Virus record (IMG/VR): IMGVR_UViG_3300045988_072096
Origin: a virus
Length of the DNA: 64,000 bases
Reading direction: 5' to 3' (one strand)
Position numbers and translations under genes: made by a program
Shown: piece after piece, positions 8,748 through 54,613 of the stretch
How the letters are laid out: the number at the start of each line of letters is the position of its first letter
Position numbering within the stretch: position 1 is the first letter of the stretch
The notes under the pieces: model-generated
Databases searched by the model: none
Told to the model about the DNA's origin: nothing
The model's input: the letters and a program-made list of their open reading frames with translations, nothing else

Positions 8748-8890
8748 AACAAGGGCCATACTGGATTTGATTCGTAAAGGAAGTAAATACGTTAAGTGCT
8801 ACTATATAAATTCAACTGGCAACTATAATGTTGTAGACTACACACATGTAGCATGAGTGTAATCTGAGTGTTTCCTACTAAAGTGGAGGA

Positions 8891-8938
8891 AGATGTAATA
8901 CGATAGGCGTACATTGTGGTTCGAGCCCACTACATCTA
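8891..8938 (+). ncRNA. tRNA-like element lacking an anticodon arm (acceptor, D-like hairpin and T arm)
   Basis: Acceptor AGATGTA/TACATCT (7 bp). D-like hairpin TACG-ATAGG-CGTA. T arm GTGG-TTCGAGC-CCAC. Only CAT occupies the place of the anticodon and variable region. Confidence 0.55.
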
Positions 8939-8982
8939 CGAAATTTATTTGTCTATTGTTTATGAAAAGTTATTAGAGTAGT

Positions 8983-18850: not shown

Positions 18851-18861
18851 TAATTTTTCCA

Positions 18862-18952
18862 TGCAGTGAAGTCTATGTGCGCATAGCTCCTGAAGAGAGA
18901 TGACATCGTAGCGGATAACGTCTCTTAGTGGGTTCGAGTCCCACCACTGCAA
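18862..18952 (+). ncRNA. 91-nt tRNA-like element with canonical acceptor and T arm but a non-canonical core
   Basis: Acceptor TGCAGTG/CACTGCA (7 bp). T arm GTGGG-TTCGAGT-CCCAC. The central 59 nt fold as CTAT-GTGCGC-ATAG plus AAGAGA/TCTCTT rather than as D and anticodon arms. Confidence 0.5.
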
Positions 18953-18978
18953 CTATATTAACTAAGAACCTTTGAGTC

Positions 18979-31100: not shown

Positions 31101-34100
31101 AGCGACTTTATCTTTTATAAACATTTGCCATGCAGATAATTCATCTGCAATCTTACGTTCTACAGTACCGATTTCTTTTTCTTTTCCATTAGAATCGTAT
31201 ATTGAAGATAATTGAGCCTTTTGTCTCTCTAATCTAATCAACTCACGTTGTTTCGATATTGGCAGCAAATCTGTTCTTGTAGGCCCTTCTGGAAGAGATT
31301 TTCTGATGGCATTTATATCTCGATCTATTTGTTCCTAAGCTTTCAACGTAACAGATGACAACATATCGATTCGTTTATCGTAGTAAGCCTTAGTAAATCT
31401 ACGAACACAATGCGTAGCATACCAGTCATTTAATTTGTGACGATATTTCTTTTCAATATCTTCGCATCCATCTGGAAACATTATTTGTCCATCATCATCG
31501 AATTGTAATTCATAGTCTTTATTACCTAATCTATCTGCTATCTGCTATTCTACGCCGTCTTTTCCCTATAATATGACGTTTAAGAATTTATTAAGCTCTC
31601 CATAAAACTTTCCGTAGTTGATTTCAGTAACCCAGTTACCAGTAAATCCGTTTTCATCTTTTTCCATGAAAAGTTTTTCAACATTAGTTATGAGCTCCTT
31701 CCATTTACCTCCATTTGCTGCGATGGCTTTTTTACGGAGAATATTTAGTTCTGTACCACGCTTTTTGACTTCATTATTTCTATCATTAGTAATGGTATTT
31801 ATAATATCTCCAAGCATTCTAATGACAGGTGAATTTACATGCTGAGTTAGTCCAACAAATACCTGGAACACATTCATATCTCCAAATACATTTTGGTCTT
31901 CTATCCAAGTATGCATACTATATTTCATACGTTCCTTTAAATCGGTAGAAAGGTTAACGTTTTTATCAACATAATCATCAACAAATGCATAAATCTGTTT
32001 AGATATTGCATTTTCATACAATTGCTCACAATCAGCGATAATACTTTCTATTCCAGCTTGTGATTGTGTGCCCTTTAACATATCTAACAAATGCTGTTTA
32101 ACTTCTTTTCCGTAGTATAATTCAAATGTTGGATCTGCTAATGCGCGGTTTAATTTAGATATAACATTTCTATAGAATTCAATCGTATTTTGCTTATACT
32201 CCTGTAAATCTTTAAACGTTATTTCTTTATCTTGAATTCCTTCTTTTCCTTGCTCATTTATATCAAGATACTGTATTCTGGTTTCTCCAGTATTTGGATC
32301 GACTATTTCTCTATAACACAGTCGTTTATACTTACCCAATTCTGCAGCACGTAAGATATTTATCATCTCTTCTATTTCGTCAAACGCTCTTTCTGCAAAT
32401 CTTGTTATCAGCTTAACATTCAAATCAATTTCTCCACCAGTATGCGACATATCGCGTTTATCTTGGTAAGATAGACGCTTTTTATTTAGATCTTTGACAA
32501 ATGCTTCACGTTGAACACGTATTCCTTCAACAAACTTTCTAACCTCTTCTTCTGCTAATTGCATATTCATCAAGGTTATAGGATTTTCCTAGGTCTTACG
32601 GTAAGATTTATTTCTAGATATCGTTCCTGTTATAATATTTTTTATAGCACTTTGTACTTTGTCACCAAGAAGCGCCTAATATTCTGGATTATTACGAGCC
32701 TATATTCCTTCATGTTTAGCTTCTTTCATTAACGCTTTTATGTCTTTCTTTTTGAACATTCGCTAATCGGCCATTTTAAATAACAAACGCTCTTTTTCGT
32801 TCATTTTTTGTTGCTCGTTTATTGCGAATGCTATAGCCATATTATTTAATAAAGCATTGCGTGTAAGACTATTGCGTATTTTAAATGTTTTATATAACAT
32901 TGACCCAAATCTAGTCCAAAAATGTGCAAAGAATGAATCGTTGTTTGCATAATCCATGAACTAATTGTCCATAGTTTTCATAGTAAGTAGATCGACTAAA
33001 GTTTCTTCACGTTCTTCGTCAGTCATTCCTTCTTTATTTACAGCACGTAATGCTTCTTGTACCAGTTTACTGCGCCAAAACATACGTAAATAATGGTGAG
33101 CCATCTCATGATTAAAAGTAGATGGGTCTGCTGAATTCAAAGCTATTCCTATTATATGATGCGCCATAGTCGATTTGGTATTATAATCATAATATCCATT
33201 TGCATCATCTAGATATTCAAAGAATTGAACTAATAGCGAATCCTTCCCGTCTGCTGTCTTCCATGTGCCGTCTGACTATCTATGTAATCCAAATGCTGCT
33301 GCTAATCGTAACTATGTAGATTGCATTATTTTGCTTTGTTGCTATTCTACAAATTTATATCTAGCGTCTTCTACAGCCTACATAATGTCCGTATTTGGAT
33401 CTTTTTCCAATCTTTCTTTTACAGCTTCTACTACAAAATCATCTTCTGTTTGAGATAGTTTTGTTAAGATAGTTTCTGTTTCAGAGTCCTATTGAGATTC
33501 AGACTCAGTAGATTCAGAGTCAAGTAATTCGTCTACATTTATGGAATCATCCGCATACTTTGATACAGCCTGTTTTGCAATTTCCTATGATTGATCGAAT
33601 GTATATCCATTATTATCCAAAATCTATAATACAACGCCTTCAATCTAAGATTGTGAGTTTTTATGAATAGAGTTGTCGATAATAGATACAACATTTTCTA
33701 AAGCGTTATTAAATTTATTTTCATCATACGCAGGAATATATTTAAGTAATTCCCTAAAGTTTGGATTTGATACAAATTCTGCAATGAACTCGTGTTCGTT
33801 TTTAAGTCCATATACGTCGAGCATTGAAAAATATCTTGATTTATTAGCATTGTCGTATGCATTTAGGTAATCTACATATCCTCTAAGTACTGCTTTTATT
33901 TTAGGGTGCTCGTCTATATATCTACTAGTAACATAATGTACCGCTTCGTGTATTATAATATTACTTATGTGCGTATAACTACGAACGTTATTATTTAACG
34001 ATATGACTTGCCCGTCTTCATCGTAGGAACAAACGCCACCGATAGATTCGTATTGTTCATTGAATTTAAAAAAATAAACTTTACCGTTTGTATATCGTTT

Positions 34101-35297
34101 CAACGTACTAAGCAAACTACCAATATAAGTTTTTTGTTTGCCTTCCGGAGTAAAATTATAAATAATATTTACCAGATTGGATAGCGAATTTTCTTTTTTC
34201 AATAATCCTCTAACGAAGTCAATATTATATTTATCTTCAAATATAGCAGAGTCTCTTGCGTTTTCATATATAGCACGAGAGTTCTTAGCTAAAGAATTAT
34301 CGTATATAGAAGCATATTTAACAAACTAGTTATATAATTTGTTTTTTATCTTATCTGAAACATTTGGTTTAATATCTACTATCTACTTAATTCTTTGCAA
34401 TTTGTTATATTTTTGCTACAAAGCCATTTTATGTAAATTATGGCCTTCTATGAATATCTGTATCGCAGTATAAGCTTTGCCTTTTTGAGTCATTAATTGA
34501 TGTTTATAATGTCCAAAATACTTATTAAGCTGTGCTTCAGTTATACCTGCTTTAAACAAATTTGGAAAGAATTGTCGTATTCTCTATTGTGTTATTATAT
34601 CATAATCAGATATATCAGTAGTGTGTTTTCTTAAGAACGATAGCATGTTTTGGACATACCATTCTCCATAAACAGACGAATTGTCAAGCTATTTTTTATA
34701 CTCAGATATTTTTTCCTAAAGTACTGGTTGTAAATTTTGACATATATAGTCTATTCTATTGTACACATCGTCTAATGATACGTCACCTTCTTGTACACCA
34801 TCTAATTCATCTCTTGTAAATAAACCTACTCCAAGTAAATCTCTTACGTAGTCATTGTATCTTACTAAAAAATTACGATAATTGTCTACATCTTGCAGTT
34901 TTCTTAGTTTACCTTTTGTTATTCTAAGTTTACTAACAAAATTAACGTAATAATCCAATAAATCTTCTGGTATATGTTTTTCTATCATTCCAGAAAGTGG
35001 TTCCCTATTCTCATCTTGGAATACTGTATCCATATTAAACCAGTCACCAAATTTACTAAGGAACTATTTTGTGAACACTTTAGCTTTTGAAGCAATTGCT
35101 CCAGCTATCATTCCACCATGTATTTTAAGTAGGTCTTGAAATAGTATAGAAGGCTCCCCATTGGGAGCCATGTCTATACTGTTTCCATTATTTTTAGACC
35201 ATATATCGTAGGCACCTACTTCTCCTACAACGTCTTTAATCTAATTAAATTTCTCAGCAACTTGTGGTCTACTGAGTATTGGACACATTATTGCCAT
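28113..35297 (-). CDS. Giant late protein, 2,394 codons if TAG is read as sense (~36 TAG); carries two zincin HExxH motifs
   Basis: Ten track fragments (28248..35033) share one frame. In every gap I scanned, the only stop triplet is CTA(+). The ATG at 35297 lies 5 nt after the upstream TAA. The true stop is TAA 28113-28115. HEAVH at 33936-33950 and HEMAH at 33096-33110. Confidence 0.75.
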
Positions 35298-35302
35298 ATT
35301 AT

Positions 35303-38300
35303 TTATCCTTTACAATGTTTACGTACTGTATCATCAAATTTATCGCTTGATTTAGCTTCTTCTTTTTCATTTTGTAATTCACTTCTAGCTATCGTTAATG
35401 ATTTCGTAACTCCATCTTCATTACCTTTACGTATTATTTTAGCACTTTTTGTATTCAAGAGCTGTTTTAAGATTTTAGGATTCTATTTAAACGATTCTTT
35501 CATATTGTCAACCATCATGTCCACTGTAACCCTTACACTTTCATCTCCATATTGAGCTCTAGTGTCATTTAATGTTTGTCGCATTACAGTGTATGCTGAA
35601 GAACTATGCAATTCGTTTAATATTTTATCTTTAGCGTCTTGTGGAATCATCGAACTGTTCATTACTGCTTCACAGTAATTAGCCTGTATTACATTATCAT
35701 ACTATATACCATTTTTTGTAAATGGCCTATTATACGTATTGCCAAATTGTTCAGCGTCTTTATGAGACAGATCGATCGGTTTTACTTCTTCTATATCATC
35801 AACATCGAAGTCATCATTCAATGAAGTATCTGATTTACCTTTTTTCTCGGAAGATTCTTTTTCAGATTTTGAATATTTATCAATTAAAGCTTGCATATAA
35901 TGCAAAATCTCATCTTCATCGTTCTATAAATTCTCTGACTTCTCTAGTGATTCAAGCTTTGCTTTAAAGCCACTATAAATATCATTTGGAGATCTCTTTA
36001 TTGCATCATAATACAGTTGTTTAACCTTTTCTGCAAAATCTTTAGCACTAAGTTGTTCTTTTTGTAATTCTTTAATCCTCTCGTCTTTAACTTCAATGTC
36101 TTTAGCTCGAGATTTAAATTCATCAAGACTTTCTTCTTTTACTTCAGATTTAGCTTTATTTAAATCTTTTCTAATCTTAGTTAGTATCTTACTTAATACA
36201 CCACCTTGCTGTTCTACACCTTTAGAATTCTCATGAGAAATTGTCTTATCACCAGTATCTAGTAATGCCTTTTTAGCTTCTTCATTCTACTGGAATGATT
36301 CTGTCATATATTTGGCGAGTAATTCATTATAGTCGTCACTCCACTTATTTGTATCAAGACCTTCTATATTCTTACCATCTTTACGTGCTTGTATTGCTGA
36401 TTCATCAGAAACTTTTTGCAATTTATCAAACAGTTCTTGTCCTTCGTCTGTTAAAATAATGTTTCCAGAAGCATCTCTCTCTTTTACATATTTACCTTCA
36501 TCTGTATATAATAATTTAGTAGCCTAAATAGCGCCTTCAACAGAATTAAATTCAAACTTGCCTAACCCGTCTATAGTAGCAGTAAACTTACGCTCTGATA
36601 GATTACTAAGTTCTCTATGTTGATCGTTGCCATAATGTACGTTTACAACCTTATCATTAGTTTTCTTATCGGATTTTTCAGTAGATTTACCTTTAGATTT
36701 TTCATCAGAACGCAATTTTATACGATGATCTTCATCTATATATTTACTGATTATCTCCTGAAGTTTAGTTTTAGTGACGTCTAATTCGTTATACTCAAAT
36801 TCATCACCTAAACGTTTAATTAATTCAGTTTCAGTAAATAAAACCGGACTATTGTTGATAAGATTTGCAAATTTATCAATAAGAGTGTCTTCTGTAAATG
36901 GCTTATCTGACATCAAATGCTTACCGCTGAAGAATTTGTTTATAGCTTCTACTGTAGTATCATCATACATAACCGGTCTTGTATATTGTGGTCTAATATA
37001 ATCGTAATTATAACTTCCTGCACGCAATGTTGTAGAATTAGGTATAGTAATTGCGTATATCGGATAAACGCCTTCTCCTGCACTTGCAGTATTTAAAGGT
37101 TTTGTATCTACAAGGCGATACAGTATGAAATTATCTGGGTCATATTTATCAAATCCGCGTTGTCTTACTTTTATAAATAACGGGAATTCCTACATTCCAG
37201 TTTTTTCATTCATAAAAGGTTTTATTGTAGAAATACGTTTTCCGTCTTTAGGGTTTGTTTTTACACATGCCATTAATAAATTGACAGTCTTAGATTTTGA
37301 TCTTGTGATAAAACTAGGTTTCCCGCCAGATTTACGCTGTTTCTGCACTAATATTTTCTTTGTAGAAACAGCTTGTGTGTAAAACGAAGCCTGCCATGAT
37401 TTATAACGTTTAGTTCTAAATTCACGTACGATTTGTGGATCTGTCCAGTTATTATAACAAATCATTGCGTACATTTCATCAGAATCCATCGGATAGGTTC
37501 CATCCTTAAAGTCGTCTTGTGCATTCGCCATTAAATCATTATATCCAGAATCAATTCTAATTGTGTTTGGAGCATACTTAAAGAACTTAGTTCCGCCTGT
37601 AGTGTCACCAGAAGTGTAAAACGCATATACAAATAGGTTTTCAGCAAATTGCTTAAATGTAATTTTCTGTTCTCCGTATTCTATGTAATGTTCTTCATCG
37701 TGATAGAGTTCGTCCCATGCGCGTTCTATTGCATTAGCGTTGTCACTATCATCGAGAACTGCATTTTCCAATTTTATGAATTTTGGATTAGCATACCCTT
37801 CTCTTTCTTGATATACGTCAGCCTATAATGCTTTTAATAGGGGATTTATTATAGTTCCATTAACACCATAACTTGCAAACGAACCTTTCTTGTCATTTCT
37901 GATTTTATTCTATATCTTAAGTAGCTGATCTTGAATTGTATTATCGCCAAAAAACAAGCTTTCAGCATAATCCATAGCTGTCATTCCTCTATCTTCTGCA
38001 TAGTCAGAGACGATGTCATCATCAAATATAAGCTATTTGACAACTTTCATCATACATCTTGATACTTTTTTGCTCAATTCTTTATTTTGTTCAGAAGAAT
38101 GGAACTTTGCCATAAGATCACTATGCATGTCTCTATATTGTTCAGTTCCTTGCATAGAAATTTGACTAATTATACGTTCATATAAGCTTAATGCATTATT
38201 CGTCTTTTCCCCAATAAACGATTCGTTTTTAAGTCTATTAAGACCGTATTGTTCAAACAGTCTGTCATCGTTATCAAACACATCGTTGTATTTTGACTTA

Positions 38301-41300
38301 AACGCCTATTGTTCAACATAACTCTTACCTTGTTTTTTTGTATCAATTTTACAAGCATTAACTAAATCAGAAAGTTTTTGTCCATATTTAGACATTTCCT
38401 AGTTTATATATGCCACGTACAATTGTACTTGTTTTGGTGATAAATCTATTGTTGTATCTACAAGTTGGCCATCATCGTTCTATACTTTAACATTAATTCT
38501 ATATCTAGAAATCTTGTCTTCAAGATTATCAAACGACAATTCTTTATTTATATTATGTAAGACGTCCTTATTATTAAATATATCTTCAAGTATGCATCCA
38601 GATTTTGTTATAATCTCTCCATTATCTTGGATATATTCAAACTCGTTGCTATATGAACCATCGTCATTTATTCCAAATAATGCTTTTGCAAATGATGCTA
38701 TTGATTCCTCTACGTCAGTATTATTATTTCCAATATCTTGTAATGTCTTCTTTATATTTTTAAGATTTCCTGTATTTGCGGCATCTTTAAAGTTATCGAG
38801 TATATAGTTAGTAACTGCAAATCTTTGTCTAGCAGCTTTGGATATAGTAATATCCTCCATATAATTTCCACCTGCCGTTTCGTATACAGAAGCAAGCTCT
38901 TTCATAATAGGCTGCGATAAGAACATAAATGTACGCTCTCCCATACCTGTTCTAACTAATAAGTTAGTTGTATTATACGTAAACGTATTGATGTTTAATC
39001 GCTATATATACGGATCTTTGGCTACGTCCACATGAGCATTAATTAATCCTGATAGCCAAGATAATTTTAAATTACCCTATTTATCTTTAAGACTGCTTAA
39101 ATCAAGACATCCTAATTCTCTAAGAAGAGGACAATGGTCTGAGTCAAATTTAACACCATATAGCTGAGTTAAAATTTGACTATTGTTATTTAACGCAAAC
39201 GGACCAATTCCGAATTTACCAACCACAAAGGATCCTCTAGTTCGTACCTAAAATGCAATATTACCAAACTTATATGCATATTCTTCTTGAGCCTATTTGT
39301 TTGTTTCAATTTTAGCCAATACGTTCTTGACAAGATTTGTATCTGAATCGATAGAGCGTAAACTGATACCTGCACTTGCGCCATTTACAATTCCATTCTT
39401 TCCGAGATCTTTTCCATGATCTTTTAATATTGTAAGATAATAATTAAGAAGATTATTTCTAGATTTATCTTCAGAATCTTTCTTAAAATCAGTCGATACT
39501 TTGTCTATGGTAATCTTCTTTCCATTAGATTCTACCTCAATCTTATATGACCTATAACTTAATCTTGACAAATACAGTTTATCGATGTCGAAGTCAGAAC
39601 CCGTAACCATTGTGAACTCTTTAGGAAGTACTATTGTATCTCTAACTACTGGCAAAACATCAACGAATCTTAATGCATGAATTGAAGATTGAGCCTGTGT
39701 AGGAATACGTGAAGCTATAGTGTTAGCTTTAGCATCTTTTCCTATAATCTTATTCTTTATAAGCCACTTTCTACTTGCCTCAAAATCGTTTTTAAGACCT
39801 TCTGGTATTATATCCATAAAGAAATCTATAGATATAACAGCGTCCATACTTCCTTCCTCATTGACAAGCTTAAGTTCGTTTCCATCATTAATTGTAGGAG
39901 AAAGTTGGTCGTCACCTAATATAGTCGGTTTACCTTCCATACTCCAGACAGATCTTTGATAAAAAGCATTTCCTTTTACATTAATGTCTACTATCTTTTT
40001 GTTTAGCTTTGCTACAAGTATACTCTGTATCCAATCGATAGAGGACATTGCTTCAAGATTAACTTTAAAATGTTTCTTTCCATCATTATCGACCTCTACT
40101 TGAATGCCATCAATCAAATTTTCATCAGCATCACGTGATTCTAATTCTTCTTCTAGGAATCTACTAAACTTTTCGATGTCTAATTCTCCAGAATCGTCAA
40201 ACATCTCACGCTCGAGTTCTTCCATTCCGTACGTAGACAAATTATTGATCTCACGCATTATTTCTCGCAATAAATCTCTACCACGTAAAGTCTTTCCATC
40301 TGGAGTAGTATACTCTTTATTTTGTATAAGACTAGTAAGCGCAACTTTCGTCATCTGTGTACCCATTTGAGCAAATTGCTTTTCATGAGGATCTGTATTC
40401 AACTGTTTACGTATGAATTTATATTCTTGATCATATGTATCAAACTAGAATGCTTCAAATGCCTCCTTGTCGTTAAGTAGTTTCTCTGTCAATTCTGCAG
40501 GAGATTGAGAACCTATCTTAACGGCACTATGCATCATTAGCATATCTATGTGTTGAGATTCCATTTTACTAAGTATTTGTTGAGTATATCCGGTGGCCAT
40601 TTGCTTGAATAGTGGGAATAATGCAAACTTATTATAGTACTGTATTTTTATATCTCCTACAGGTCTATATCCATATGCACTGTATTTTTGTGCACCAAGC
40701 ATTGCTTCGTATATAACTTTAAATGCCTACTTATTACTAAGAATATTGCTTTTTCGCTTACCCTCTAGATATTCAAAGGCCTCTCTTACAGGTTGTGTAT
40801 ACTTTCCAAGTTGACGTAATAAGTTTTTAGCCATTTTTGGTGTTATAAATGCAGCACCGTCTGCCACATTTATCTAAGCTCTGCCTTTTTTATCAAGTCC
40901 AAATGAAGATGCTTCGTCTTCACCACGCTTTTTTGCTACATTAAATAAAGTAATCTAACCAGCAGACTCAAAATCATTCTTGATTTCATCAAGAGACATC
41001 TCATTTACACCATTTTTTCCATATATCCTATCTGCAAGTTTGTCTAATTCATCTTGATCAACTATATCCTTAGACTTATATTCATAATAAATTTGACGTA
41101 TTTCTGCATCTTGGAACAAAGAATTAAGCATATCCAATTGGTTAGATACAACCATTTGATCTTCTACTTCTGCGCATTTATATTTGCTACGTATTCCAAC
41201 CATATATGGCCTATTTCTTTCTCCAGTAGAGCCAAGACCACCAAGACGCTTAGTTTGATCGCTATGTCTATCTACAAGACGTTTTACGCCATTTACAATG

Positions 41301-44300
41301 TCATATACCCATTTATATGATATCGGATTTCCAGTATATAAACGTTCTATTTCTTCTTCTGAGATAATACCTCTTAAATATACATCCCACATATAAGCAA
41401 GTACAGCCTAACTTCGTGCTTTTGCTGCATTTTCTATTGTTATATTAGATCCACTTGGAGTTAATTCAGCTTCATATTTAGCTTGAAGCTTATCTATACA
41501 TACACTGTCGAATGCGACGTTTTTATATGTATAAAGTCTTCCTAACTTCTCAACACCTTCGTTGTCGTTTACAATTGCTCCACAATGTTCTGCTAAAGCT
41601 AAGTCATCGTAAAAACCTTCTTCCAGTGTTAATGCCATCATTTCTGCGCGTTGCTTGTCAGTAACATGATCTCCAAAGAATAAATCATCTGCTTTTTGTA
41701 AATAATACAACGGATCTTTATCGCCAGTTAAATGTAACCATCCGATACTTCCATCGTCTTTTCTATACGCAATCTTCGTCAAAGAACCAAAGCGCATTCT
41801 ATTATCACTAACACGCTCTATCTTTTTCAATATATTAAGAATAGATTTATCCTTTTCTTCATTTCGTTCTATTTCTCGTGCTATGGCATTTCTTTCACAA
41901 AAAGCATATTCGATCATCTGTCTGATCTATAAATCATATGGATTTACGCTTATGTGTAATTCACCGCCAACTTCTGTTACATGTAACAAATCGGAAGTCT
42001 ATGTGTTTGTAATATTATGATAATCGATACCAGGAGTTTTTATTCCATCCAAAAAGAACCATGTTGATTTATCACTCAACGTAGGAAATACAATTCTACC
42101 TGCAGCAAGCATACCGCATTTACCTACAAAATCTTCACGCTCAGACGTCTTAGTATATTTTACACCTCCTTGATAATCGCTATCAAGTCTAGCACCATTG
42201 TATGTCTACAATTTAAGTTTAAACTTATCTCCTGTAGCAATATACTTCATTATAAGAGATCCTATCCTTTGAATACGGCCTGCAACTTTTCTAGTTGACC
42301 AACAGTAATTCCACTTAGATGAATCTTTAAGAATTTTACTTCCAGTAAAACTATCATTTTCCTTATCATACCCACCTTCATTGATATCTTCAGTCATATC
42401 ATATGCAGTGTGTCTCTGTGCCATTGTGTAATTCTTAGTACCTTCTGGACCATTTGTCATAAGGTCTGTAGATGTTTTGTTATATCTGCTGACAGCTTGC
42501 GCACACCATTTTATAAAAGAGTTGTCTGAATAAATATTTGTTCCAGACGCGAATTCCCTACTTCTGCCTTCAATTACTTCTTTCTTACCGGTCATCAATA
42601 TATCGTTAATTTTTTCTTGATTTCCTTTAAGTAATGTTTGGCACAATGAATTTCCATTTTTATTATATACGACAGATTCTATGAACTTCTAAAATGACAG
42701 ATCTTGTTTAGCACTTGTGATTAGATATCCAAATGCCTTCTAAATAGATATTCCATTGCCGATAGTATCAAAATGTTCTCTTAGAGCCATTTCTAATGCA
42801 GGCTTTTGGATATCTATACCCAAGATATTCAAGCTGTTTATAAATTGCTGTTCGATATATATAAAATCATCTTTGCTATTTTTATCGACATCTCTTTCTC
42901 CGATTTTATGTGTTTTTGCGACAGTTGTATACAATTTGTATATTTCACCCAATGTATCTTGCGCTTGTTTTAACAAAACTCTACCAGTTTCTTCTTCACC
43001 ATTTTTAACAAACTTTATATTTCCATTTTTGTTCATGAAGAATATTCCGCTAACTCCAGTTCTAAATTGTGCGAACCATTGCTTAGGGAACATACTTGCC
43101 GCATAACCACTATCTGAAGATTTAATACTGCTTGTATATTTACCATCCACTGGCTGTCCGTCCTCATCGTGTACTTGAGAGAATACTACTTGCATAAAAT
43201 CAAGTTTCTAACATGATACGAAATTAAATAACTGAGTAGCTAATGCTTCACTACTTGTGGAATCTACATCGTAATCATATTCACTGATTACATTTCCGCT
43301 GTCTTTTCCATCTTTATCTGCTGATGTGAAATAAATTCCGTCTTCTCCATTATGCTAGAAATATGAGTTTTTCTTTAATGGTTCTCCATCTTTGCCAATC
43401 AGTATATACTTACCATCATCGTGTTTTTTAATAGAGTTATTTAGCAAAGCATTTAGCTTATGCTCAAGTCTATAAAATACAGGTTCAGTTTCTGCTAATT
43501 CATGAAGTTTCTACAATAGATCTTCTGCAGACTTACAATCGTGACATGCAGATAACAATAGATTCTTAACCTGGTTTCTAGGTACATATCCTGTAAAGCC
43601 TAATATTCCTCTATTGTTTGGTATCATTACTCTACTACCATCTTTATTCATTGTAGATTTTACTCTGCCAACTTTAACGTCTTCTTCAGTAGCAAATCTT
43701 TCGTCTGGAATAGTACTTAACATAAATCTTACTGCAGCAGTTGTGTCTTCAGAACGATCGTGCGTGTAAAAAGCATCATCATGTGCCGCTATTTCTTGAC
43801 CTATATATGAACTATTCTCATCATCTGCTACATCGTTTTCATCATCTTCTTGTTTCTGTAGTCTGTCTAATTGAGAATCGATTCCGAGAACCTATAAACG
43901 TCTATTTATTTTCTGTTCGATTATATCCCAATTATTCTTATCGAATAACTGAGCGAACATTTTTTGAGATTGATTTAAGTCTTCAAATTTACGCTTATTT
44001 TCCTGTTCACGTATAAGAATAAGGATTTGTTTCTTTAGTTCGTTTATATCACCCTTTTCTACTTTAGCTGCAGCCTATCTTGTTAACTCTGCTATTTCCT
44101 ATGATCCGTAATTTGTCTTATAGTACTATATAGCATCTTGTACAGTCATACCGTCATTTATATATTCTCCAGTTAAGACTCTAAAGAACGCAGAATGTTC
44201 AGTACTTTCCTTTCCGTGAAATAATTTTTGCATTGAGCTTAAATCAGTAACAATTCTTGCTGCATTTGATGCAGTCATATCTATACTATATCCCTGAATG

Positions 44301-47300
44301 ATTGTAGATACTATATGATCAAGAGCTTCTTCGAACATCTGCATTCCACCAAATGCAGGAAATTCAGACAAATCTATATGAACTCTTTCAGATGTACGTT
44401 TACCATCTTCATCAGTGTGGTAACGTTTTCCGCTGATGGTAAGATACATTTGCCCATTAAAATCATTGACAAAACGTTCAATATTAGCTTGTTTAGGTTT
44501 AATGTGTCTAAATATTCCAGAATTGGCCATAATAAATAACATAGCGAATTTACGGTCTCCTAACGCACGAAGTGCTTGTATATATTCTTTTATTTCATTG
44601 AATATCTTACTAACTTTCCAAAAGTTATTCCACTTAATGCTTATATGTTCTCTGTCAATCATAAACATTCTAAACATTTCTGCCAATCCTTCAGCTACAT
44701 CACGTTCTGTAAGCTTTCGTCCATGTGATTTTTCAAAGGCCGCTCCGTAATGTTCAGCATATCTCTAGTAAATCTTTTTACGTCGTTTTTCTCCTACAAG
44801 TAATTCAAGTATTCTATGGAATGCTTCATGATATTGAGCACCTTCTGGAGCATGCTTACTTAATGTGATGGTATCTGTTGATATCATACCGGCTACTCTT
44901 GCTCCATTGGATAACGTTGAAAGTTCATGCTCTACGAATATTAGTGGAACATTGCCTACAAGACGCTTTGTTTCTTTTTCAACAAACCTCTATTGTTCTT
45001 CAGTTAATCTACTATTTGCCAATTGATCAGTGACCATAAGCATACCAGGAGCACCATCATCAAATAGATTACCGTCCATCCAAGACGACCCATTACTAGC
45101 ATCATCCAATGCTTGATCAATACTAGCATCATCCCAACCGTCATCGATTTTACGTTTATTTGGTTCTTGCTCAGTCTATTCGCCTTCTTTAGTCTGCTGT
45201 TCTTGACTTTTTTCTGGCTTATGTTCTGGCTTTATTACAGATTTTTCTTCAACTTTTGTTTCTTGTTGAACTCCAACCTATCCTCCATCTGATGCTGGTT
45301 TAGCATCGTCTTCTGCTTTTTTCTTTTCAGCTTCATCGGATGTTTTTTCTAATTCTGTTATGGAAATCAGAGGATTTTGTAATGATTCTGCATTAGTTCT
45401 AGCGTACCCATGCTTTATCATCCATCCTGCAAAATCAAGACCTTGCTCATAATCATCTCGTGTGATTTCAAAATCTCCAAATTTGATTCTAGTTATATTA
45501 TAATCGGTATTTTCAAATATACGACACACGCTGCCAAAGAACCCATTTTGGTCGTTTAGTTTAGAGCGCATTATACCAGCTTGATTTATATGCATGTCGA
45601 CCAATGCTAATATGCGTCTAAGTCTTGCTAAATCTCCAGCATCAGTAATATCTAAAACGATTGTCGGTCTTGTTAGTAGTTTTGTCTTAGGATCTACAAC
45701 AGGAGCCTACTCCATATCTGTTATCAAAATCATACTTCGATTTTGCGTCTTCTAATCCGCTCCTACTGCATATTGAAATATAAAATCGTGTCCAGCAAAA
45801 CTTGCCTATCTACCAAAACGAGTTATCATTTTTAGTATCTGCTGGCAGCTTATTCGTGACATCTCATTTGATACTTCACCTTTATCGTCATATATATGTA
45901 TTCCGTTGAATATAGTATCAGTGTTCTGATCATTTGCACTCGCAATCTACTGCAAACAATTTACAATTAAATCAACGTCATTAGTTTCAAATTTTTTACC
46001 TCTAAGTGTTATATACACAACACGCATTGGTGCATCTACTGGGTCTTCATCGTACTTAAACTTATATAAGAATACTACACTACCTGCTGGCATATGTTCA
46101 TCTTGAGTAAGCTCATTTCCTGGCAGAGGAGTATATCCCTTCGGTAACGGTTTACCATTTTCGTCCAATTTATTTGTATCACCTATAGTAGATCTATTCG
46201 TGTCACTGATTTCAAATATTTCACCGTTTTTACCAACAACTCCAAGCAAACTATCTTCTCCATTGAGCAATTTAGTAAGTGTAGACTCGCCAACTATAAA
46301 TTGTGTATCCATTAACGAATGGTTGTTTTCGGAATACACCAATTGTCCATTGGTACGTTTAACATTTTTAGCTACGATATATTCACCGGGCTTCAATGAA
46401 TTAAACAATGATCTGTATTGACGAATTAAATTTCTAGCCATTATACTGTAATTACTTGGATCAGATTGTACGTCCGAGTTACTTCCAGGTTCATTACCTA
46501 ATTCATTGCCCAAACGTATTCGCATAGATTTGCTAAATTTAATGACCTTACTGCCCTTTGGAGCATATGTGATAGTTACATTAAACGTTCCGTCGTCGTT
46601 TCTATATATTTTAAACTGTGAATTAACTATAAAATCTGATTTTATTATTGATTCCAGATAATGAGGAATAGTCTTTAAGAAATCAATAGTGGAATGAAGA
46701 TTGTTAAATTGATACCAATGCTATTTTCCAGCTTCAGGAACAATTTCAGTCTGGCTATCTTCCCAGTTTTTATCAAGTAAGTGTTTGTCCTAATTATTTA
46801 AACTATCTGGAGATGGAGAACTATCTGTTGAAGATTTATATTCTTCAAGTTCCTGATCAAACTGTTCACCAATTGAAACTATATTTTGTTTTAATAAATC
46901 ATATTCCTGTAATATAGATGCATGACTATCATCAGATACTAAATTATTTATGTGATTAATAAACTAGTTTGCAAGCTTTATAAAATCCCGCATTTTATTT
47001 TCAAGATCGGCAGAAACCCAATGATAAATATCTACATAATCTAATATATCTTGATACTACTAAATACTACTCTATAAGTCATCACAACATTTCTAATAAT
47101 ATTCACGATGATTTGTAGCACTATCGTCGCTCTATAAGTAATTATCTAATGCAGAGAATTCATCTTCAACTATAGTTCCATTTAGATTAACAATACCCTA
47201 TGATTGTACAGTACTCATGTGGTCAACATCATTGCCGGCGTTGTCATAATCTACATAAAATGGCAATATTTCAAGAGATGTTACTTTTACTCCAGTTTGT

Positions 47301-50300
47301 TCTTGAATCATAAGCCTATACATATGAAGCTATCTAGCATATTGCTGCGCATAATTACGTTGATATCCTGCACCAAGATTTTCATCAAAAAATGGCAATT
47401 GCGTTCTCACTTCCGCGCCTTCCGGAGCCTCCATACCGTCCTGTATGTTTTGCCATACTTCCTCTCCTGTTATAGGATTTTTAGATTTAAATTGTCTTGT
47501 TGGTTTAAACCTACGGCTATTTTTAGTAGTCTTAAAATCAAGTACGCGTATATTACCTTCTCTATCAATAGCTATTAAGTCTGTTTCACCAGCTACTCTT
47601 TGGTGATTCGGTAGTGTAAAATACCATGTATATGGAGTCGTATCTACAACCCATCCTCGTTTTACAAACTCTGCCTATATTTTTTCAAATTCTTTAACTG
47701 TGTCTTTAAATATAGCATCAGTCATTTTGTATTCAGGCTTATTTGTAAGATCTTCTCCAGCAAAAAACGCTCTACCTATTTCATCGACAATCTGCCCTGC
47801 AATTACAGCTGGTCCTGGTACTTTATTAGTTACAATTTCAGATATAGCATAAATAGTGTTATCAATTTCGCTATCAGATAACATTTGCTGTTTCGTATAC
47901 ATTTCCAGATTGATGCTGTACCGTTTATACTCAAAAGAATCTTTTCCGTAAGTATCTGCAAGGTTTTGATTGTATTCATTCTGTAATGCGCGTATTTCAT
48001 TTTTTATATCCTAGGATTTACGCAATCGCTATTCTGCGATCTTTTGATCAACACTTCGAGATATGTCGCCTACAAACTAGGGGCCTATTATGCCGTGTAC
48101 ACGTATAAATGACATGAATACATGTCCAACTTTAATAAAGTAGTTAAATGCAGTTACTACTTTATTTCCGTCTTTATCAGACTTGACTAATGACTTATCT
48201 TCTTCCTACTTCTTCTTAAGTTTGTCTAATACCTCCTACTATTGCTCATTCGGAGTTACTCGAGTTTCTTTCGGTTGTTCAGACGGCTGTTCAATCTAAT
48301 CTACATACTGCTGCAGCTAGTCTTCTCCGGCAGCTAATGCATCTATGTTTCCACCATCTCTACGTTCAAGGTCATATACAAAATTCCCGTCCGCACCTCG
48401 AATACCTAAAATTTTGTAAACCTATCCTCCGTATATAACTTTATCTCCAGTTTTGTATTTTGGGGTATTATCTGTAGCGTCGTTAGCAAGTAATGATATA
48501 TCTTCAGTATTTACAGAATAAGTGTTTCCATCAGCAGTCTATACAAATACATGATTGTCTTCTGGTGCTATATTAATTGGGCGAATTACTTTTCCTACAT
48601 ACTATTCACCATTATATATAAATCGTACAGTCTTACCTTCTAATTGATCTGTAGAAGAAGCTGGTTTTTGCTCAGCTGATTCACTTGGCTGTTGCTATGC
48701 CTATTGTGTACCATTATTTGGCTATTCGATTAAAAGCGATGTAGATTCTCCAGTTTGCGTAGATTTATCTGCATTTTGATCCTAAGTTTCACTTGTAGTC
48801 TATTCTGATGTCGTAGCAGTAGATGGTTTTGTATTTTGTGTCTACTTATTACGCTCGCGTGCAGTCTCACGTTCTGTTAGAGAATCGTGATATTCCATTT
48901 TACTAAACTGAAGATCTTCAGAATCGATTTTTCCGCTATTCGGATGATATCTACGTTTTGTCCAAGTTTCAGTACCATCTTTTTGTTTTTTACGATGTGT
49001 AATATACCAGTGACCGTCATTACCCACAAATATGTCGTTGTCTTTAACTTCTCTTACTGCAGCGTCTTCAATTCTACGAATAGAATTTACGTAATCTTCT
49101 TCAAGAATACGATTTATATTTTTATCAGTCTGAAGTTTATTATCATACATTTTAAGTTGATGATTCGGCATCTGCAGAAGGTCATTTAGCATATGTTGTT
49201 GTAACAATGCGTCATATTCTTGCATATGTCGTTGACGATATAGTCGCGCGATTCCATCAAATTGGTTGTCGCCATTAGATAAATAAACATCATTGTAATC
49301 AGTATCTTCTCTAATATTGCCATCTAATAAATCTTTTATTGTAAAATTACTTATATCAATACTTTGTGACTAAAGTGCTGGCTGTAATAATTGTATTAAA
49401 GTATTTCCGACTTCTGTATTATTGAGAGCCTTGAGTACATCTTCTTTATTTTCAACACGTATTCCATGTTTTTCTAATGCCTTTTTTAGCATATTTGACT
49501 ACATCTTGAAATGATTTGACAAAGAGTGTTCTTTGCCCATCTAATGTTCAAGTCTGCTGTAGTCATCATACAACTGATAAAGTGCGTATAAAGATGCTAA
49601 CGCTTTTGCATCATCTTCTCTCGTATCGCGATCAACATTTTGATCAACATCATCTTCATAGTAATTATCGTCCGGCTCAATATGTGTACCAAACATCTTC
49701 TGTATCTCGGCATCAGTCTCCATCAACTATTGATATGACTCATTTCTACTATTAAGCCGATAATTCAATAACGAAACGAGCTTAGCATAATTTCTCTGAC
49801 TAGAGCCACTCTTATAAAATGCATGTGGATTTATTCCAGCTCTTTGCGCTATTACATACATCTGTTCAGAATGAGCAAGATCGTAGATATCTTCACATGT
49901 TTTATACAGATCGTCTATTAATTCTCTAGGTATGGCATCTTCATCTTCTTCAAGTAAAGTTTCTCCGCGAGCTCTACGGTATGCATTTTCTCTGTCAGTA
50001 GCTCTATCGTGAGTGCCTACAATTCTTGCAAAATCTATAAACCGTTGTCTTGTGGTCTATTTATCTTCCATCATTGCTAATTTTGCAAGCAATTCTCCCT
50101 AAATTAGCTGAGTATCTGTAGTACGTTTTAATATATCTAGATTGTTTTGTATAATATCAATAGCCTTAACATCTGATCTAATTTTACTTGCCGACGTCAT
50201 TAAAGATATTGATGGCTGTAATCCAAATAACGTCAATAAAGGAGTAGCATTCATTGATGGAACTACATCTGCATCTGTATAGTAAGCAGGATCATTCTAG

Positions 50301-52903
50301 TTAATCCAATACCATACAGCTTTACCTCCAGTAATAATATCATCAAATGCGCGTTTTGCTAATCCGACATTAGACTATTGATCATATCCCCAATCACTAT
50401 CTTTTGCTTTTTGGGCATTTAATCCTTGTACACCTTCTTGCGTCATTTCTGATGCAGTATTGATACCCATACGCATTCCTACATTTGCGACACCTTTCGT
50501 TATAGCAGCAGCTTTCAGATATCTGCTAGGAACTGTTGTTGCAAATTGACGAACTCTATTAAATGCTCTAGCTATACCGCTTTCTCTTCCTATCCACTTT
50601 GCACCTTTTTCAGTATATCTAAGCGGTGCTGAAAGTGCATGTCCAACTTTTGCTGCGCCGTTTTTAGCTTTTATTAGTCCTGTAGTTAATGCACGTCCTG
50701 CCTCAGACTCAAGGGCTTTTTTAGCAGCTCCGTGAACTCCTTCTTTAAATCCAGCGAACTTTAATCCAGCTGCTGTTTTTCCGAATTTCATTCTTGCCAA
50801 TCTTCCAGCTGCTACTACTTTTGATCCTAATGCCAATTTTTCAATCGGCTCTAGACGAAGAGTTGTTGCTAATGTTCCAACTAAAGCATCAGTAGAGTTT
50901 ACAGGTTCGTTTGCATAGAAAAGGTTATTTGTTCCTACAACTGCATCTCTATGTAGCATTGTTATTTCTGGATTTGTAGAATGCCACATTCCATTACAAT
51001 ACATTTCAAGTATGCGCTGTTCGGTTTGCTCTTTATCGCCAAGTTTTTGTAAGTCCTTAATTTCTCCAAACTTACTCATTCTAGACAAGCCTTCTTTTAT
51101 GAATTCATCATACAAGTTGTTGTTTATTAAAAAAGACCTCATCTAATCTGTAACCAGTGTACCTGCTTCAATGTTATTTTCTTCATTAGAAGCAGCTTTT
51201 TGCGCATTGTATCCGATACCGATAGTAGTGGCTTGTGTAAGTAATTTTGCTCCTACCAGTTTTCCAAAACCATATGTACCGCCGACAAGTGCAGATCCTG
51301 TACTTATTGCGCTTTTCCACCAAGATGAATTTGAACCACCAGCTATTCCTGACCAACCAAAAGCAGCCATTTTAATTGGATTTTTCCACGAATACTGTGA
51401 ATATTGCAATGCTTCTGCCTCAGCTTTGTAATAATCGTCTACTTTAGCGCGGGCTTTTAATATATTATCACCTGTAACCCAATCTTGAATATCTTTCAGA
51501 TCAGTGGTATAATCATCCTACCAACCTTTAATTCTGTCTTCAGCAGCTGCATTGAAATTATTAAGCAAAGTACGTATTTTTTTAATACTTCTGTTGGTAG
51601 AATCAATCCATCCTTGATTGTATTCACGTGATTGCATTTTTTTAGCTAAGTCATCTGCCATTCCTCCTAATCCATTCAGATAATTTCTAATGCCGCCGAT
51701 ATCCAAATCTAATTTTGAATCTATTGCTTGTGAAATAAACCCCATTGGGCCTCCTGCAGACCATGTAGATAAGTTATTAAGGCTATTTCTCCATTCTGGA
51801 TGCTCATTCAATGCTTGACGTATCTTTTGGTTTTCTTCAAGTAGTAAATTAAGCTTAGTCTTAGTGAGATGTAGTACGCCAGAATCAAGATGCGCATCAT
51901 GACTTCCATATCCTGTAGCTAATTGTAGTTTTTGTATTTCTGCCAAATTATTAGCATATTTTTCTGTAAGTGTAAGGTATTTATCAACATCATTTGCCAA
52001 ACCTTGTAACTCTTTAGCTCTAGAAACCTTACCTGTACTAATCTACGCTTGATTTTCGTTTGTTTTTATAATAAAATCCGACGCAAAACTTTTACCGTAT
52101 GCAGAATTTACTGCTCCAAGAAAACTCATTGTGGTATTATACATACCACCAGTCCCTTGTACACCCATAGCATTGTAAGCATCTCCACTAATATCTTGTC
52201 CGTAATAATCATTAGGTTTAATTTTTTCAAGGTCTGACGCCTTCTTCTCTGCAGCTTTCTACTGTATCTAATACTATTTATCGAAATCTTCCAATGCCGC
52301 TTTTAGGTAATCTGGATCATTCATTAATCGATAGTTATGGATCTCTAAATATTCTTTATCTGTTAAAGCTTTATTTTTATTAAGTTTTCCAAACGTACGA
52401 TTTTCAAGTAAACGTCTATTCAGCCTTTCTACTGTACTCTCATGTTTTTTTGAATCAAGTATTTTTTGTAACTCATTGTCAAGATATCCTTGCGCAGCTT
52501 TGGTAGCTGGAAAAAGCTGCGCAGTACCAGTTTTGTCTTTTTTGGCTCTACGATTTGTTCTTTCAGCCCACGCTGCATATTCAGGCGACATTGGATCTGG
52601 AGAGATAGCGTCGTAGAAAGCATACGGATCTGCAGTTTTACTACTGTATTCCTGCGGAGACATTGTGCTGTATGCATTAGCCGGCTATGTTGGAGTAGGA
52701 TTTTGCTGAGCCTATTTAGCTGGTGCATTTGAATTAGTCGGTTTTAATGTGTTATCCTACTCCTCTAATTCTTTTTTCTTTCGTTCATTTTCAGCTTCGA
52801 TCTATAATTCCAGAGCTCTTTTTTCTTGCTCTAAAGCAACATTGTTGCCCATTACTTCTCGAAATTGTTTAAACGAAAAATGATTTTTATCCTTTTTTGC
52901 CAT
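35303..52903 (-). CDS. Giant late protein, 5,866 codons if TAG is read as sense (~87 TAG); contains an RNA polymerase-type DFDID motif and a zincin HEAFH motif
   Basis: 33 track fragments (35702..52663) share one frame. All gaps were scanned by hand: only TAG interruptions, no TAA or TGA. The ATG at 52903 lies 5 nt after the upstream TAA. Stop is TAA 35303-35305. TGSDFDIDKLY at 39581-39595. YHEAFHRI at 44816-44830. Q/T/S/E-rich linkers at 48.2-48.8 kb and 45.1-45.3 kb. Confidence 0.75.
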
Positions 52904-52908
52904 AACTA

Positions 52909-54606
52909 TTAATTTATTCTAGCGTCTTCAGTTGTTCTGCTCGCTTTATCGTTAAATAACTTACCAATATTTACATCCATAGATTCAGTTTCTGGAGCGG
53001 ACCTATCGTCATAATTCGGGTTTATAATGAAATCTTTATTTTTTACATCTACAGAGCTTCCTTGAGTGGTTATATGAGTATCGTACCAATATGTATCTCT
53101 TGTACGATTCCATTTTCCAGATTTCTTTATTGCTTCATTACCATTAGCGTTCATCACATCTTCATCGCTCTTTTTATACCAAACTTGTGTTTCAGCAAAT
53201 GTTCTAACTTTACCGTCTTTACATAACGTAGTCAATATTTTTCCGGTAGGCCTCATTTTATAATCATAATTATTGAAATCAACACTCTTATTTTGTGACA
53301 ATACGGTGGTTTCGCCGGAATTGAGTTTAACTCTGGCCGTTCCGTACATATGGTTAGATACAGCTTTTGCAGAATATAATCTATTACCCATTGCGTTAGA
53401 CAAAGAAACTGTATTATCTGGACCGACATTTAAACCTAACGACTTTGATACATTTGACGCTAAATCAAAGGTACTCATATTACGTAAAAATTGAGTTCTA
53501 GTGTTAAATCTATTTGCATGTACTTTCTTTCTCTAAGCGGTTTTGATATCTAATGTCAACTATTTCATATTATCCGTTTTACCAGAATTAATATCTTGCA
53601 ATAACGATTTCTTTATATCATTTACACTTCTTCCACTAATATGTGCGAATCCTGCAAACATATTCTCAGATATGTGCGAATGTCCTTCACTGCCACTACC
53701 GTCACCGTTTCTATATTTTGCAGCTTCTCTAGCATTTATTTCAGCCATTGTGAGCGCATGTTCATATTTTTTGAGTGCAAACGGATCTACTTCATATTTA
53801 TCGGGAGATAAATAACGCATGTTCGCGTCAGCTATACGTCTATCTAATATATCATATGCTTTATTAATAAGCTCTTCTTTAGACGCATTCGGATTTTGTT
53901 TTGCAGCTTGTTCTTGTGCCAACTTCCACTCGAATGCACCTCTTGGAGTATTGATGAAATCTTGAGCGTTTGATTTTGCAGCGTTCAACAGATCATTATA
54001 ATCATATGAATATCTTCTCTGTCCATTTTTCATGCCTTTGTACAACGGCTGACGTCCTTTGTATATATAGTCCGTAACCTCTCCTAATCCCTAGAATGGA
54101 CTAAATGTGCTATTGTATACACCGTCTTTAAGTGTATCCCAATCTTTAAAGCTAGCTCTACCGGCTTGCTGATCTAAGAAATCTTGATAAGCTTGACTAT
54201 ATAAACCTTTAGATTCAAGTTCGGCTTTAACCTTCAACGCATTTAATCCTTGCAATGCAGATGCTTTCAATTTAGCAAGTTGCCCACCAGGAGCTGCTGC
54301 TATAGTCTATGCAATCCTAGCTCTACCTTCTTGGCTACGTATCATGTCTGGGCCGTAATTCTATAATAAATTACGTATTGGTTCATTTACTAGTTGATCC
54401 CAGTTCTCGTTATCTTTCTCATATGGACTATAGAATTCGCCATATTTACTATTATATTCTTTTAAATCCTATGCAGCTTGCATATAATCTTGGCGCACAG
54501 CATTTGCATAATTCTACTGTGCTGCCAAGAATAATTGTGCAGTTGCAGGATCAAACATGTCATCTATCTTATAGATAACAGGTTGTTCTTGTCCTAGTAT
54601 ATTCAT
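52909..54606 (-). CDS. Late virion-module protein, 565 codons (7 in-frame TAG)
   Basis: Fragments 52909..53478 and 53560..54045 plus an upstream stretch are in one frame. ATG at 54606. TAA at 52909. Confidence 0.7.
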
Positions 54607-54613
54607 TGCTATA

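Follow-up and report, generated by a model that had tools for sequence, protein, structure and literature searches.

A TAG-recoded 17.6-kb late gene of a crAss-like phage predicted to fuse a gp47-like protein to the virion RNA polymerase

The 64,000-nucleotide (nt) stretch of viral DNA analyzed here (IMG/VR record IMGVR_UViG_3300045988_072096; hereafter the window) carries on its minus strand a giant open reading frame (ORF; 35303..52903) that runs from an ATG at 52903 to a TAA at 35303, spanning 17,601 nt, or 5,866 sense codons and the terminator. This frame is real, and there is good reason to believe that it constitutes one late gene of a delta-group, Suoliviridae-like crAss-like phage. Judged from its sequence, the product, with a predicted mass of ~660 kDa, is a gp47-like protein (amino acids (aa) 1-2840) fused to a gp50/gp66-like virion RNA polymerase (RNAP; aa 2845-5370) and extended by a NADAR tail. 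It is a divergent new member of a known group, with ~40% identity to its nearest relatives, and not a new kind of gene.

The giant frame and its polymerase module

The frame holds 87 in-frame TAG codons, read as sense and most likely as Gln, no TGA and a single TAA, the terminator; its ATG is the first start codon past an in-frame TGA at 52928-52930. A first-pass annotation, made from the letters of this DNA, had proposed precisely such an uninterrupted frame with about 87 TAG codons, and the codon count proves exact, as does the number of TAGs. From base composition, 5,866 codons would be expected to include ~235 TAA and ~124 TGA (~359 together), so that the chance of meeting neither is vanishingly small (ln P ~ -370), and each of the remaining five frames of the region contains 155-704 TAA and TGA codons. 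The pattern recurs in relatives. A query taken from the DFDID region of the polymerase (see below) was used to fetch 80 loci from IMG/VR, each on an independent contig, and all 80 have a TAG-dependent giant frame, with 28-136 in-frame TAGs apiece and ORFs of 4,043 to >5,780 aa; where the first-pass annotation had allowed that stops or frameshifts might surface in related genomes, no TGA or TAA precedes the terminator in any of the 80. On this concordance, an assembly artefact or a pseudogene is rejected as the origin of the frame.

Five Suoliviridae giants are recorded in RefSeq as single coding sequences at the same place in the late operon: cr272_1 gp23 (YP_010113476.1; 6,386 aa), cr130_1 gp79 (YP_010113266.1; 5,801 aa), cr52_1 gp34 (4,464 aa), cr109_1 gp53 (4,328 aa) and cr114_1 gp021 (4,272 aa). 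Each of them has 37-74 in-frame TAGs, no other internal stop and a TAA terminator. The giant of the window is not exceptional within this family, as the length of cr272_1 gp23 attests, and the earlier suggestion that it ranks among the largest phage ORFs was overstated. An exhaustive HMMER search returned two full-length homologs with the same layout of HExxH and DFDID motifs, P0041 (5,688 aa; 38.5% identity over giant aa 32-5300) and P0047 (5,596 aa), and the nearest IMG/VR contig (L011) is ~41% identical over ~4,600 aa (giant aa 767-5361).

The polymerase module (aa 2845-5370; 36794..44371, minus strand) is of the single-chain phi14:2 gp66 / ΦcrAss001 gp50 type, as indicated by PDB entry 6VR4_A and by blastp, profile and tblastn comparisons. 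It contains TGSDFDIDKLY, with the DxDxD-type magnesium site DFDID at aa 4437-4441 (window 39581-39595). A focused 622-aa phmmer query matched 6VR4_A (phi14:2 gp66) in the PDB with E = 5.5e-22, and TGSDFDIDK of the window aligns residue for residue with TGSDFDIDK of gp66, in which the catalytic residues are D1361-D1365; the DFDID motif is kept in all relatives compared. By blastp, the similarity covers gp66 residues 958-1658 (E = 1e-24, GSDFDIDK identical). In gp66, a connector formed by residues 1095-1238 lies between a pair of domains of the double-psi beta-barrel (DPBB) type (Drobysheva et al., 2021); the aligned span takes in this connector together with segments on either side, and homology thus predicts a DPBB fold for the giant. 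All 105 records that a tblastn search with aa 3400-5270 retrieved from phage GenBank are crAss-like.

A family profile, built from seven full-length Suoliviridae proteins and aligned to reference proteins, extends the match along most of the polymerase and into the preceding half of the giant. Residues 95-890 of phi14:2 gp66 correspond to window aa 2845-3868 (domain E 3.6e-9) and residues 942-1674 to aa 3986-4687 (domain E 2.3e-65), followed by weak matches of residues 1717-1789 to aa 4823-4894 (domain E 0.0028) and of residues 1941-2015 to aa 5085-5162 (domain E 0.036). The gp50-like RNAP of Kehishuvirus matches over residues 186-2345 (window aa 2930-5371; best segment E 1.3e-36). Ahead of the polymerase, the 2,310-aa gp47-like protein of Kehishuvirus matches at residues 1586-1874 (window aa 1532-1844; domain E 3e-8) and at residues 2104-2278 (window aa 2643-2827; domain E 1.5e-25). 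These collinear matches, to the gp47-like protein and then to the gp66/gp50-like polymerase, are what leads us to read the giant as a fusion of the two, with the fusion point placed at about aa 2830-2845. The assignment of the DFDID segment to the crAss-like virion RNAP, made at first from the motif, is thereby upheld, both by the PDB match and by profile collinearity with gp66 residues 95-2015.

Gene order supports the same view. The gp47-like and RNAP parts lie in one uninterrupted frame, with YHEA[F/W]H and GSDFDID, at the syntenic position; the polymerase frame sits in the late virion/cargo block beside a gp65-like gene, and the order matches that of cr130_1, cr131_1, cr109_1, cr114_1, cr52_1, cr272_1 and phi14:2. 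A comparison of gene boundaries, which the first-pass annotation had recommended, finds the two halves as separate genes in Steigviridae and fused in Suoliviridae. Several broader searches were silent: phmmer of aa 2901-5866 as one query returned nothing from the PDB, a result owed to query design, since the focused query then matched 6VR4; Pfam and PHROG tiling recognised neither the polymerase nor the HExxH module and matched only NADAR and PD-(D/E)XK; megablast of the 17.6 kb against phage GenBank gave no match; and for phi14:2 gp67, a candidate equivalent of the N-terminal half of the giant, no similarity to that half could be detected (profile E = 8).

Standard-code gene callers break the region of the giant into more than 40 fragments, pieces of 150-384 aa among them, and the gene shows cleanly how TAG recoding of late genes hides a 17.6-kb gene from such callers. 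The annotations of its public relatives are correspondingly poor. RefSeq product names of the giants in NC_055901, NC_055892, NC_055888 and NC_055899 include 'DprA-like DNA recombination-mediator protein', 'nuclear pore complex protein-like protein' and 'DNA helicase', names that the domain content found does not back and that make no mention of a polymerase.

The HExxH module and the proposed role of the giant

Immediately ahead of the polymerase lies an HExxH...E module of the gp47 type (aa 2609-2840; 44384..45079, minus strand), which appears zincin-like from its invariant residues, profile matches, a model of a homolog and a search of predicted viral structures (BFVD). Its YHEAFHRI places HEAFH at aa 2692-2696 (window 44816-44830), 1,745 codons from DFDID, in line with the ~1,750 noted previously; in the downstream VAEGLAEMF, E2738 (window 44690-44692) lies 42 residues past the second His. 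YHEA[F/W]H occurs once in each Suoliviridae giant and in the Kehishuvirus gp47-like protein. An alignment of eight divergent sequences (22-29% identity) has 11 invariant columns, five of which are H2692, E2693, A2694, H2696 and E2738.

A structure model (AF2) was made for the homolog P0032, which shares 40% identity with the window module across 93% of its length, and not for the window sequence itself. The model has a mean pLDDT of 69.9 and a pTM of 0.66, with core pLDDT of 80-93, and consists of a helix (14-28), three strands (33-36, 51-54 and 57-61), the HExxH helix (68-81, pLDDT >80), an insert helix and the Glu helix (112-129). The metallopeptidase (MPTase) core of polyvalent proteins has been defined as an N-terminal helix and a three-stranded sheet before the HExxH helix, the stretch that joins the two conserved helices being open to variable inserts (Iyer et al., 2017; PMC5512222), and the predicted topology of P0032 matches this zincin/MPTase definition; E2738 would then be the third metal ligand. 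An earlier model, of a Kehishuvirus-type homolog (P0001; 379 aa), was of low quality (pLDDT 56), and the Foldseek search made with it was discarded as meaningless.

Searched with Foldseek, the BFVD yields the same module in other crAss giants, with E down to 5e-9, and next a set of 'large polyvalent protein-associated domain' proteins at a borderline E = 5e-3 (probability 0.99). A protein homolog search with the window's own HExxH region gave no match. Compared by hhalign with the published gp65-type zincin, the module scores weakly (probability 60%, P = 9e-5); it appears to be gp47-type, distantly related at most to the gp65 type, and abuts the polymerase directly. In some Steigviridae-type gp47-like proteins (P0038 and P0039), an ART-PolyVal domain (PF18760, E = 2e-17 and 9e-12) stands between the HExxH module and a conserved C-terminal tail, and by sequence it connects this family with polyvalent proteins. 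It is highly probable that the HExxH module is a zincin-like domain that binds metal, and the odds that it is an active metallopeptidase are slightly better than even. Of the zincin motif proposed at first, the HExxH and the downstream Glu are real and invariant, and the homolog topology is zincin-like; a significant match to a known peptidase is the part that did not materialize.

We propose that two neighbouring genes, separate in other crAss-like families, became fused in frame to give a multidomain cargo protein. The giant protein would be packed in the capsid and then, before the DNA or along with it, be extruded into the Bacteroidota host. There, the polymerase module would transcribe the early genes, i.e., the plus-strand, standard-code genes of the window, and the nuclease, HExxH and NADAR modules, injected alongside it, would serve as effectors, as proposed for polyvalent proteins. 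Packaging, ejection and early transcription are inferred from virion homologs: mass spectrometry found gp47 (262.5 kDa), gp49 and gp50 (276.9 kDa) in the virions of ΦcrAss001 (Bayfield et al., 2023; PMC10172136), and the phi14:2 record annotates g065, g066 and g067 as virion proteins by tandem mass spectrometry (MS/MS). The polyvalent or polyprotein-type virion cargo envisaged by the first-pass annotation fits these data, its homologous parts being verified in the virions of both phages. A single huge crAss-like polyprotein that is likely to be cleaved, next to a protein with a zincin domain, had already been put forward (Drobysheva et al., 2021).

Several observations weigh against this proposal. 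Packaging, ejection and activity are read wholly from homology at 23-33% identity, and the N-terminal ~1,500 aa and aa 2066-2502 appear devoid of assignable function. Among Pfam families, nothing matches the HExxH module significantly, either in the window scan or with the module profile, and the profile finds no match among PDB sequences; Foldseek of the P0032 model returns nothing from the PDB at E <= 0.001, with MATCAP and BlaR1 appearing only at E = 2-3. Polar linkers are missing between the HExxH module and the polymerase, which speaks against obligatory self-cleavage. Finally, ARAGORN and Rfam detect no tRNA(CUA) suppressor in the 64-kb window, about a third of the genome (~35-40 kb) lying outside it.

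What the HExxH module does within such a cargo can be read in two ways. The giant may remain intact, as in N4, with the module serving as a host-aimed metal hydrolase or effector (acting on peptidoglycan or a host protein) or as a structural or regulatory zinc site that packaging or the switching-on of the polymerase requires; we regard this as a serious contender, a little short of an even chance. Peptidoglycan digestion or RNAP activation has been proposed for the crAss zincin (Drobysheva et al., 2021), and in N4 the MPTase-containing region is needed for encapsidation and the protein is not cleaved (Iyer et al., 2017; PMC5512222). The N4 C-terminal domain, which has an HExxH subdomain, binds and autoinhibits the polymerase; in the giant, the HExxH module is directly contiguous with the polymerase, and the two more HExxH modules of the next gene suggest diversified roles. 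The module has, however, no similarity to known peptidoglycan metallopeptidases, and its predicted core follows the generic layout of MPTases, a type that is proteolytic in most cases; moreover, nothing found here sets an intact protein apart from one that cleaves itself, and the two are comparably likely.

Self-cleavage, which the first-pass annotation had thought possible, would have the module act as a zincin autopeptidase that, inside the capsid or once injected, cuts the giant and frees polymerase, nuclease and NADAR units; it is possible yet doubtful. The halves are separate in Steigviridae and hence able to work unlinked, the module sits exactly at the fusion boundary, and its catalytic-type residues are invariant. 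Self-cleavage has been published as a hypothesis for crAss-like polyproteins (Drobysheva et al., 2021) and for polyvalent MPTases, e.g., P1 DdrB (Iyer et al., 2017; PMC5512222). Long linkers between globular stretches, already remarked upon in the first-pass annotation as rich in Q, T, S and E, are plausible cut regions: seven polar, Q/T/S/E/K-rich segments map to aa 20-96, 1321-1434, 1524-1589, 1998-2065, 2503-2608, 5375-5439 and 5649-5723. On the other hand, the module is just as conserved where it is unfused (the C-terminus of the Kehishuvirus gp47-like protein; P0001-P0037), and its role therefore predates the fusion, so that cutting the fusion cannot be its primary role. It has no significant similarity to a proven peptidase, and the missing linker before the polymerase, together with the N4 virion RNAP, which also has an MPTase and is packaged uncleaved (Iyer et al., 2017; PMC5512222), argues against obligatory self-cleavage.

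Every N4-type virion RNAP comes fused with an MPTase (Iyer et al., 2017; PMC5512222), and two unrelated enzymes, the T7-like polymerase of N4 and the DPBB polymerase of crAss-like phages, are each tied to an HExxH module. One could imagine, as a rather unlikely extension of the cargo proposal, that the gp47-type module is a built-in switch that holds or cuts the polymerase in such a way that it turns active only once injected, and that the twin NADAR tail, injected with it, is a counter-defence that clears ADP-ribose marks or signals of host immunity as the DNA enters.

TAG recoding in the late genes

Once TAG is read as sense, the minus-strand ORFs of the 28-64 kb part all merge into long frames of 166-5,874 codons, and the plus-strand genes at 1-28 kb stay essentially unaltered; TGA recoding was rejected, as the late ORFs are not lengthened when TGA is read as sense. 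Eight long minus-strand late ORFs have 3-88 in-frame TAGs each and end in TAA (seven) or TGA (one). TAG terminates five of the 25 long plus-strand ORFs and never a minus-strand gene. When the 80 relatives are aligned to the window, 352 of their 1,327 TAG positions fall on a window Gln (7.0-fold enrichment); conversely, the TAG positions of the window are enriched 4.0-fold for Gln in the relatives, with which an earlier tally of RefSeq relatives agrees. An apparent enrichment of Cys at window TAG positions comes from 37 alignments and most likely reflects one column in a clade of near-identical relatives; we do not read it as a coding signal. Across the minus-strand late genes, TAG is thus read as sense, most likely as Gln, and the plus-strand genes keep it as a stop. 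The sense reading adopted at the outset was right and holds for the entire family, RefSeq relatives and the 80 IMG/VR loci included.

With 71 TAG codons ahead of DFDID, efficient reading of TAG is required to make the catalytic site at all. It is very improbable, and close to refuted already, that the region does not encode one protein, TAG terminating or being partly read through to give nested or separate products, or the frame being an artefact of assembly or a pseudogene: the lack of a suppressor tRNA in the window and the standard-code fragments, many of which populate public databases, could be cited in its favor, but TAA and TGA are absent from the whole frame against ~359 expected, the same pattern is found in 80 of 80 independent contigs and all RefSeq relatives, homology continues through the TAG positions, which align preferentially to Gln, conserved catalytic modules sit behind 53-82 TAGs, even 95% read-through would bring only ~2.6% of ribosomes to DFDID, and the sole real interruption found in a relative is a putative intron. 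The latter is in cr131_1 (NC_055902), where a LAGLIDADG ORF (gp49; 18238-19031) lies exactly inside the DFDID codons and splits the gene into gp50 and gp48. The three ORFs encode 4,372, 242 and 1,401 aa, exon 1 ending in ...ITGSD and exon 2 beginning with FDIDHLYL; the insertion is of the homing-endonuclease kind and probably an intron. Such introns have been reported in the same phage group (Yutin et al., 2021; PMC7886860), and the window differs from cr131_1 in having none at this site.

The tRNAs of the window are tRNA-Met, tRNA-Gln(UUG) and tRNA-Leu(UAA) only, and a TAG-decoding agent may be encoded in the rest of the genome. Suppressor tRNAs are often undetectable in recoded genomes (Yutin et al., 2021; PMC7886860), and their presence is for this reason not strictly defining for recoding. 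Two RAGATH-1 hammerhead ribozymes (Rfam RF03152), at window 2500-2606 and 3562-3631 on the plus strand, exceed the gathering score, with 62.5 and 68.1 bits, and each lies ~110 nt upstream of a tRNA gene (tRNA-Met, 2713-2787, and tRNA-Gln(UUG), 3741-3812); the pairing of ribozymes with tRNAs in a recoded phage may bear on tRNA processing. A permuted 'tmRNA*' called by ARAGORN at 8567-8947 (plus strand) is probably a false positive, as no Rfam tmRNA reaches the gathering threshold. Near 28 kb, the coding strand switches sharply (1-28100, plus; 28113-64000, minus), and GC and AT skew change sign.

Other modules, flanking genes and known systems

The N-terminal region (aa 1-1320; 48944..52903, minus strand) has no recognisable domain and appears fast-evolving and lineage-restricted, with Gly/Ala-rich amphipathic stretches. 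It has no match in Pfam or PHROG, and none by tblastn in phage GenBank; an exhaustive HMMER search with the N-terminal fragment found eight relatives among 1.84 billion representative proteins, none with an annotated domain and four of them large proteins themselves (1,808-5,688 aa). Two short beta-rich repeats follow at aa 1435-1523 (GKxVxF.../GDKVIYGG...; 48335..48601, minus strand), recognized by reading the sequence and flanked by polar linkers. Their Pfam match to CBM_5_12 is sub-threshold only, and they are possibly, at a guess, SH3-like binding modules.

The PD-(D/E)XK nuclease module (aa ~1532-1997; 46913..48310, minus strand) is supported by PHROG 298 ('exonuclease', E = 1.5e-8), by Pfam PDDEXK_1 (PF12705; 22.3 bits against a cut-off of 22) and by gp47-like homology. 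The Pfam and PHROG matches lie near aa 1750-1880, and the motif, ...ETDLIAID...VLDFK, spans aa ~1771-1792, with LDFK at aa 1788-1791; a PDDEXK domain has been noted in some proteins of the transcription block (Yutin et al., 2021; PMC7886860). Between this module and the HExxH module lies a globular region (aa 2066-2502; 45398..46708, minus strand) with no Pfam match and with polar linkers on both sides.

Beyond the polymerase, NADAR domain 1 (aa 5427-5558; 36230..36625, minus strand) matches Pfam PF08719 and PHROG 1017 (E = 3e-15), scoring 36.0 bits alone with PF08719 (cut-off 35.1); the whole tail scores 53 bits. A divergent NADAR domain 2 (aa 5716-5832; 35408..35758, minus strand) has PF08719 E = 2.8e-5 and 24.9 bits, which alone falls short of the gathering score. 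It has been proposed that NADAR domains process adducts or signals of ADP-ribose and that some phages package them into their virions (PMC9503650). Given NADAR here and ART-PolyVal in some Steigviridae, the link of crAss cargo to ADP-ribose-based conflicts recurs, tying this cargo to the counter-defence theme of polyvalent proteins.

The downstream gene (28113..35297, minus strand) starts 5 nt past the stop of the giant and encodes a 2,394-aa protein that blastp and a motif survey identify as phi14:2 gp65-like ('RNAP-associated'). Its HExxH motifs, HEAVH (33936-33950) and HEMAH (33096-33110), are variant forms of the gp65-type zincin, an assignment published for gp65 orthologs (Drobysheva et al., 2021). 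By blastp to gp65 residues 169-350 (E = 3e-9), HEAVH aligns with HEIMH and 'HEFI[A/S]E' is shared, so that the giant and its neighbour, both cargo genes, have three HExxH modules between them, each of a different sequence type. The upstream late gene (~578 codons; 52909..54645, minus strand) ends 5 nt before the ATG of the giant and is placed by synteny only, at the position of phi14:2 g068 (579 aa) and the cargo genes of relatives; it has no detected sequence similarity to phi14:2 gp68, which is of the same length. The spacers between the three large late genes are exactly 5 nt (52904-52908 and 35298-35302; TAGTT and ATAAT), with no obvious Shine-Dalgarno sequence, which suggests tightly coupled translation.

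Literature and RefSeq already cover the fused RNAP polyprotein and the recoding as well as the hypothesis of cleavage by a zincin, and the gene opens no new question; of use to specialists are the fusion point, the gp47-type HExxH module that abuts the polymerase and the ADP-ribose-related cargo domains. Among known systems, the Suoliviridae giants are the closest counterparts. They have in common with the window the late-operon position, collinear homology across the HExxH module and the polymerase, and one YHEA[F/W]H ~1,500-1,760 aa upstream of GSDFDID; those of cr130_1, cr272_1 and cr131_1 also have a NADAR-containing tail, whereas the shorter giants (4,272-4,464 aa) have no alignment to the window's tail. 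The RefSeq giants are only 22-36% identical to the giant of the window, whose N-terminal ~1,500 aa cannot be aligned with them.

Phi14:2 gp66 (PDB 6VR4) resembles the polymerase module in the features described above, and in phi14:2, too, the gene for the gp65-like HExxH protein lies downstream of the polymerase. By contrast, gp66 is a free-standing protein of 2,180 aa encoded in the standard code, and the window module occupies the middle of a frame of 5,866 aa, in which a gp47-like part (with no detectable similarity to gp67) comes before it and NADAR after it. In ΦcrAss001 and Kehishuvirus, the gp47-like protein similarly combines PD-(D/E)XK with a C-terminal HExxH module, and the gp50-like protein is the polymerase. 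In Steigviridae, however, the two are separate genes, in Kehishuvirus convergent ones on opposite strands, and not one frame as in the window; some Steigviridae append ART-PolyVal after the HExxH module, while the lineage of the window appends NADAR at the polymerase end.

Recoding in the window follows that which Yutin et al. (2021; PMC7886860) described for gut phages, crAss-like ones and others: only the late strand with the virion genes is recoded, the standard code is retained in early genes, and Gln is the inferred residue. The window differs from these phages in having no visible suppressor tRNA.

The N4 virion RNAP gp50 and the polyvalent proteins (Iyer et al., 2017) likewise combine a polymerase, an HExxH zincin-like module and effector domains in a giant protein, and share with the window the idea of early-acting domains that are delivered together; packaging and injection are known for N4 and would apply to the window by inference. 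Between the N4 and window HExxH modules, no significant link in sequence or fold was obtained. The N4 polymerase is T7-like, not of the DPBB type, and its MPTase is C-terminal, whereas that of the window is N-terminal; since the polymerases differ in this way, the association of an HExxH module with the crAss polymerase would be convergent.

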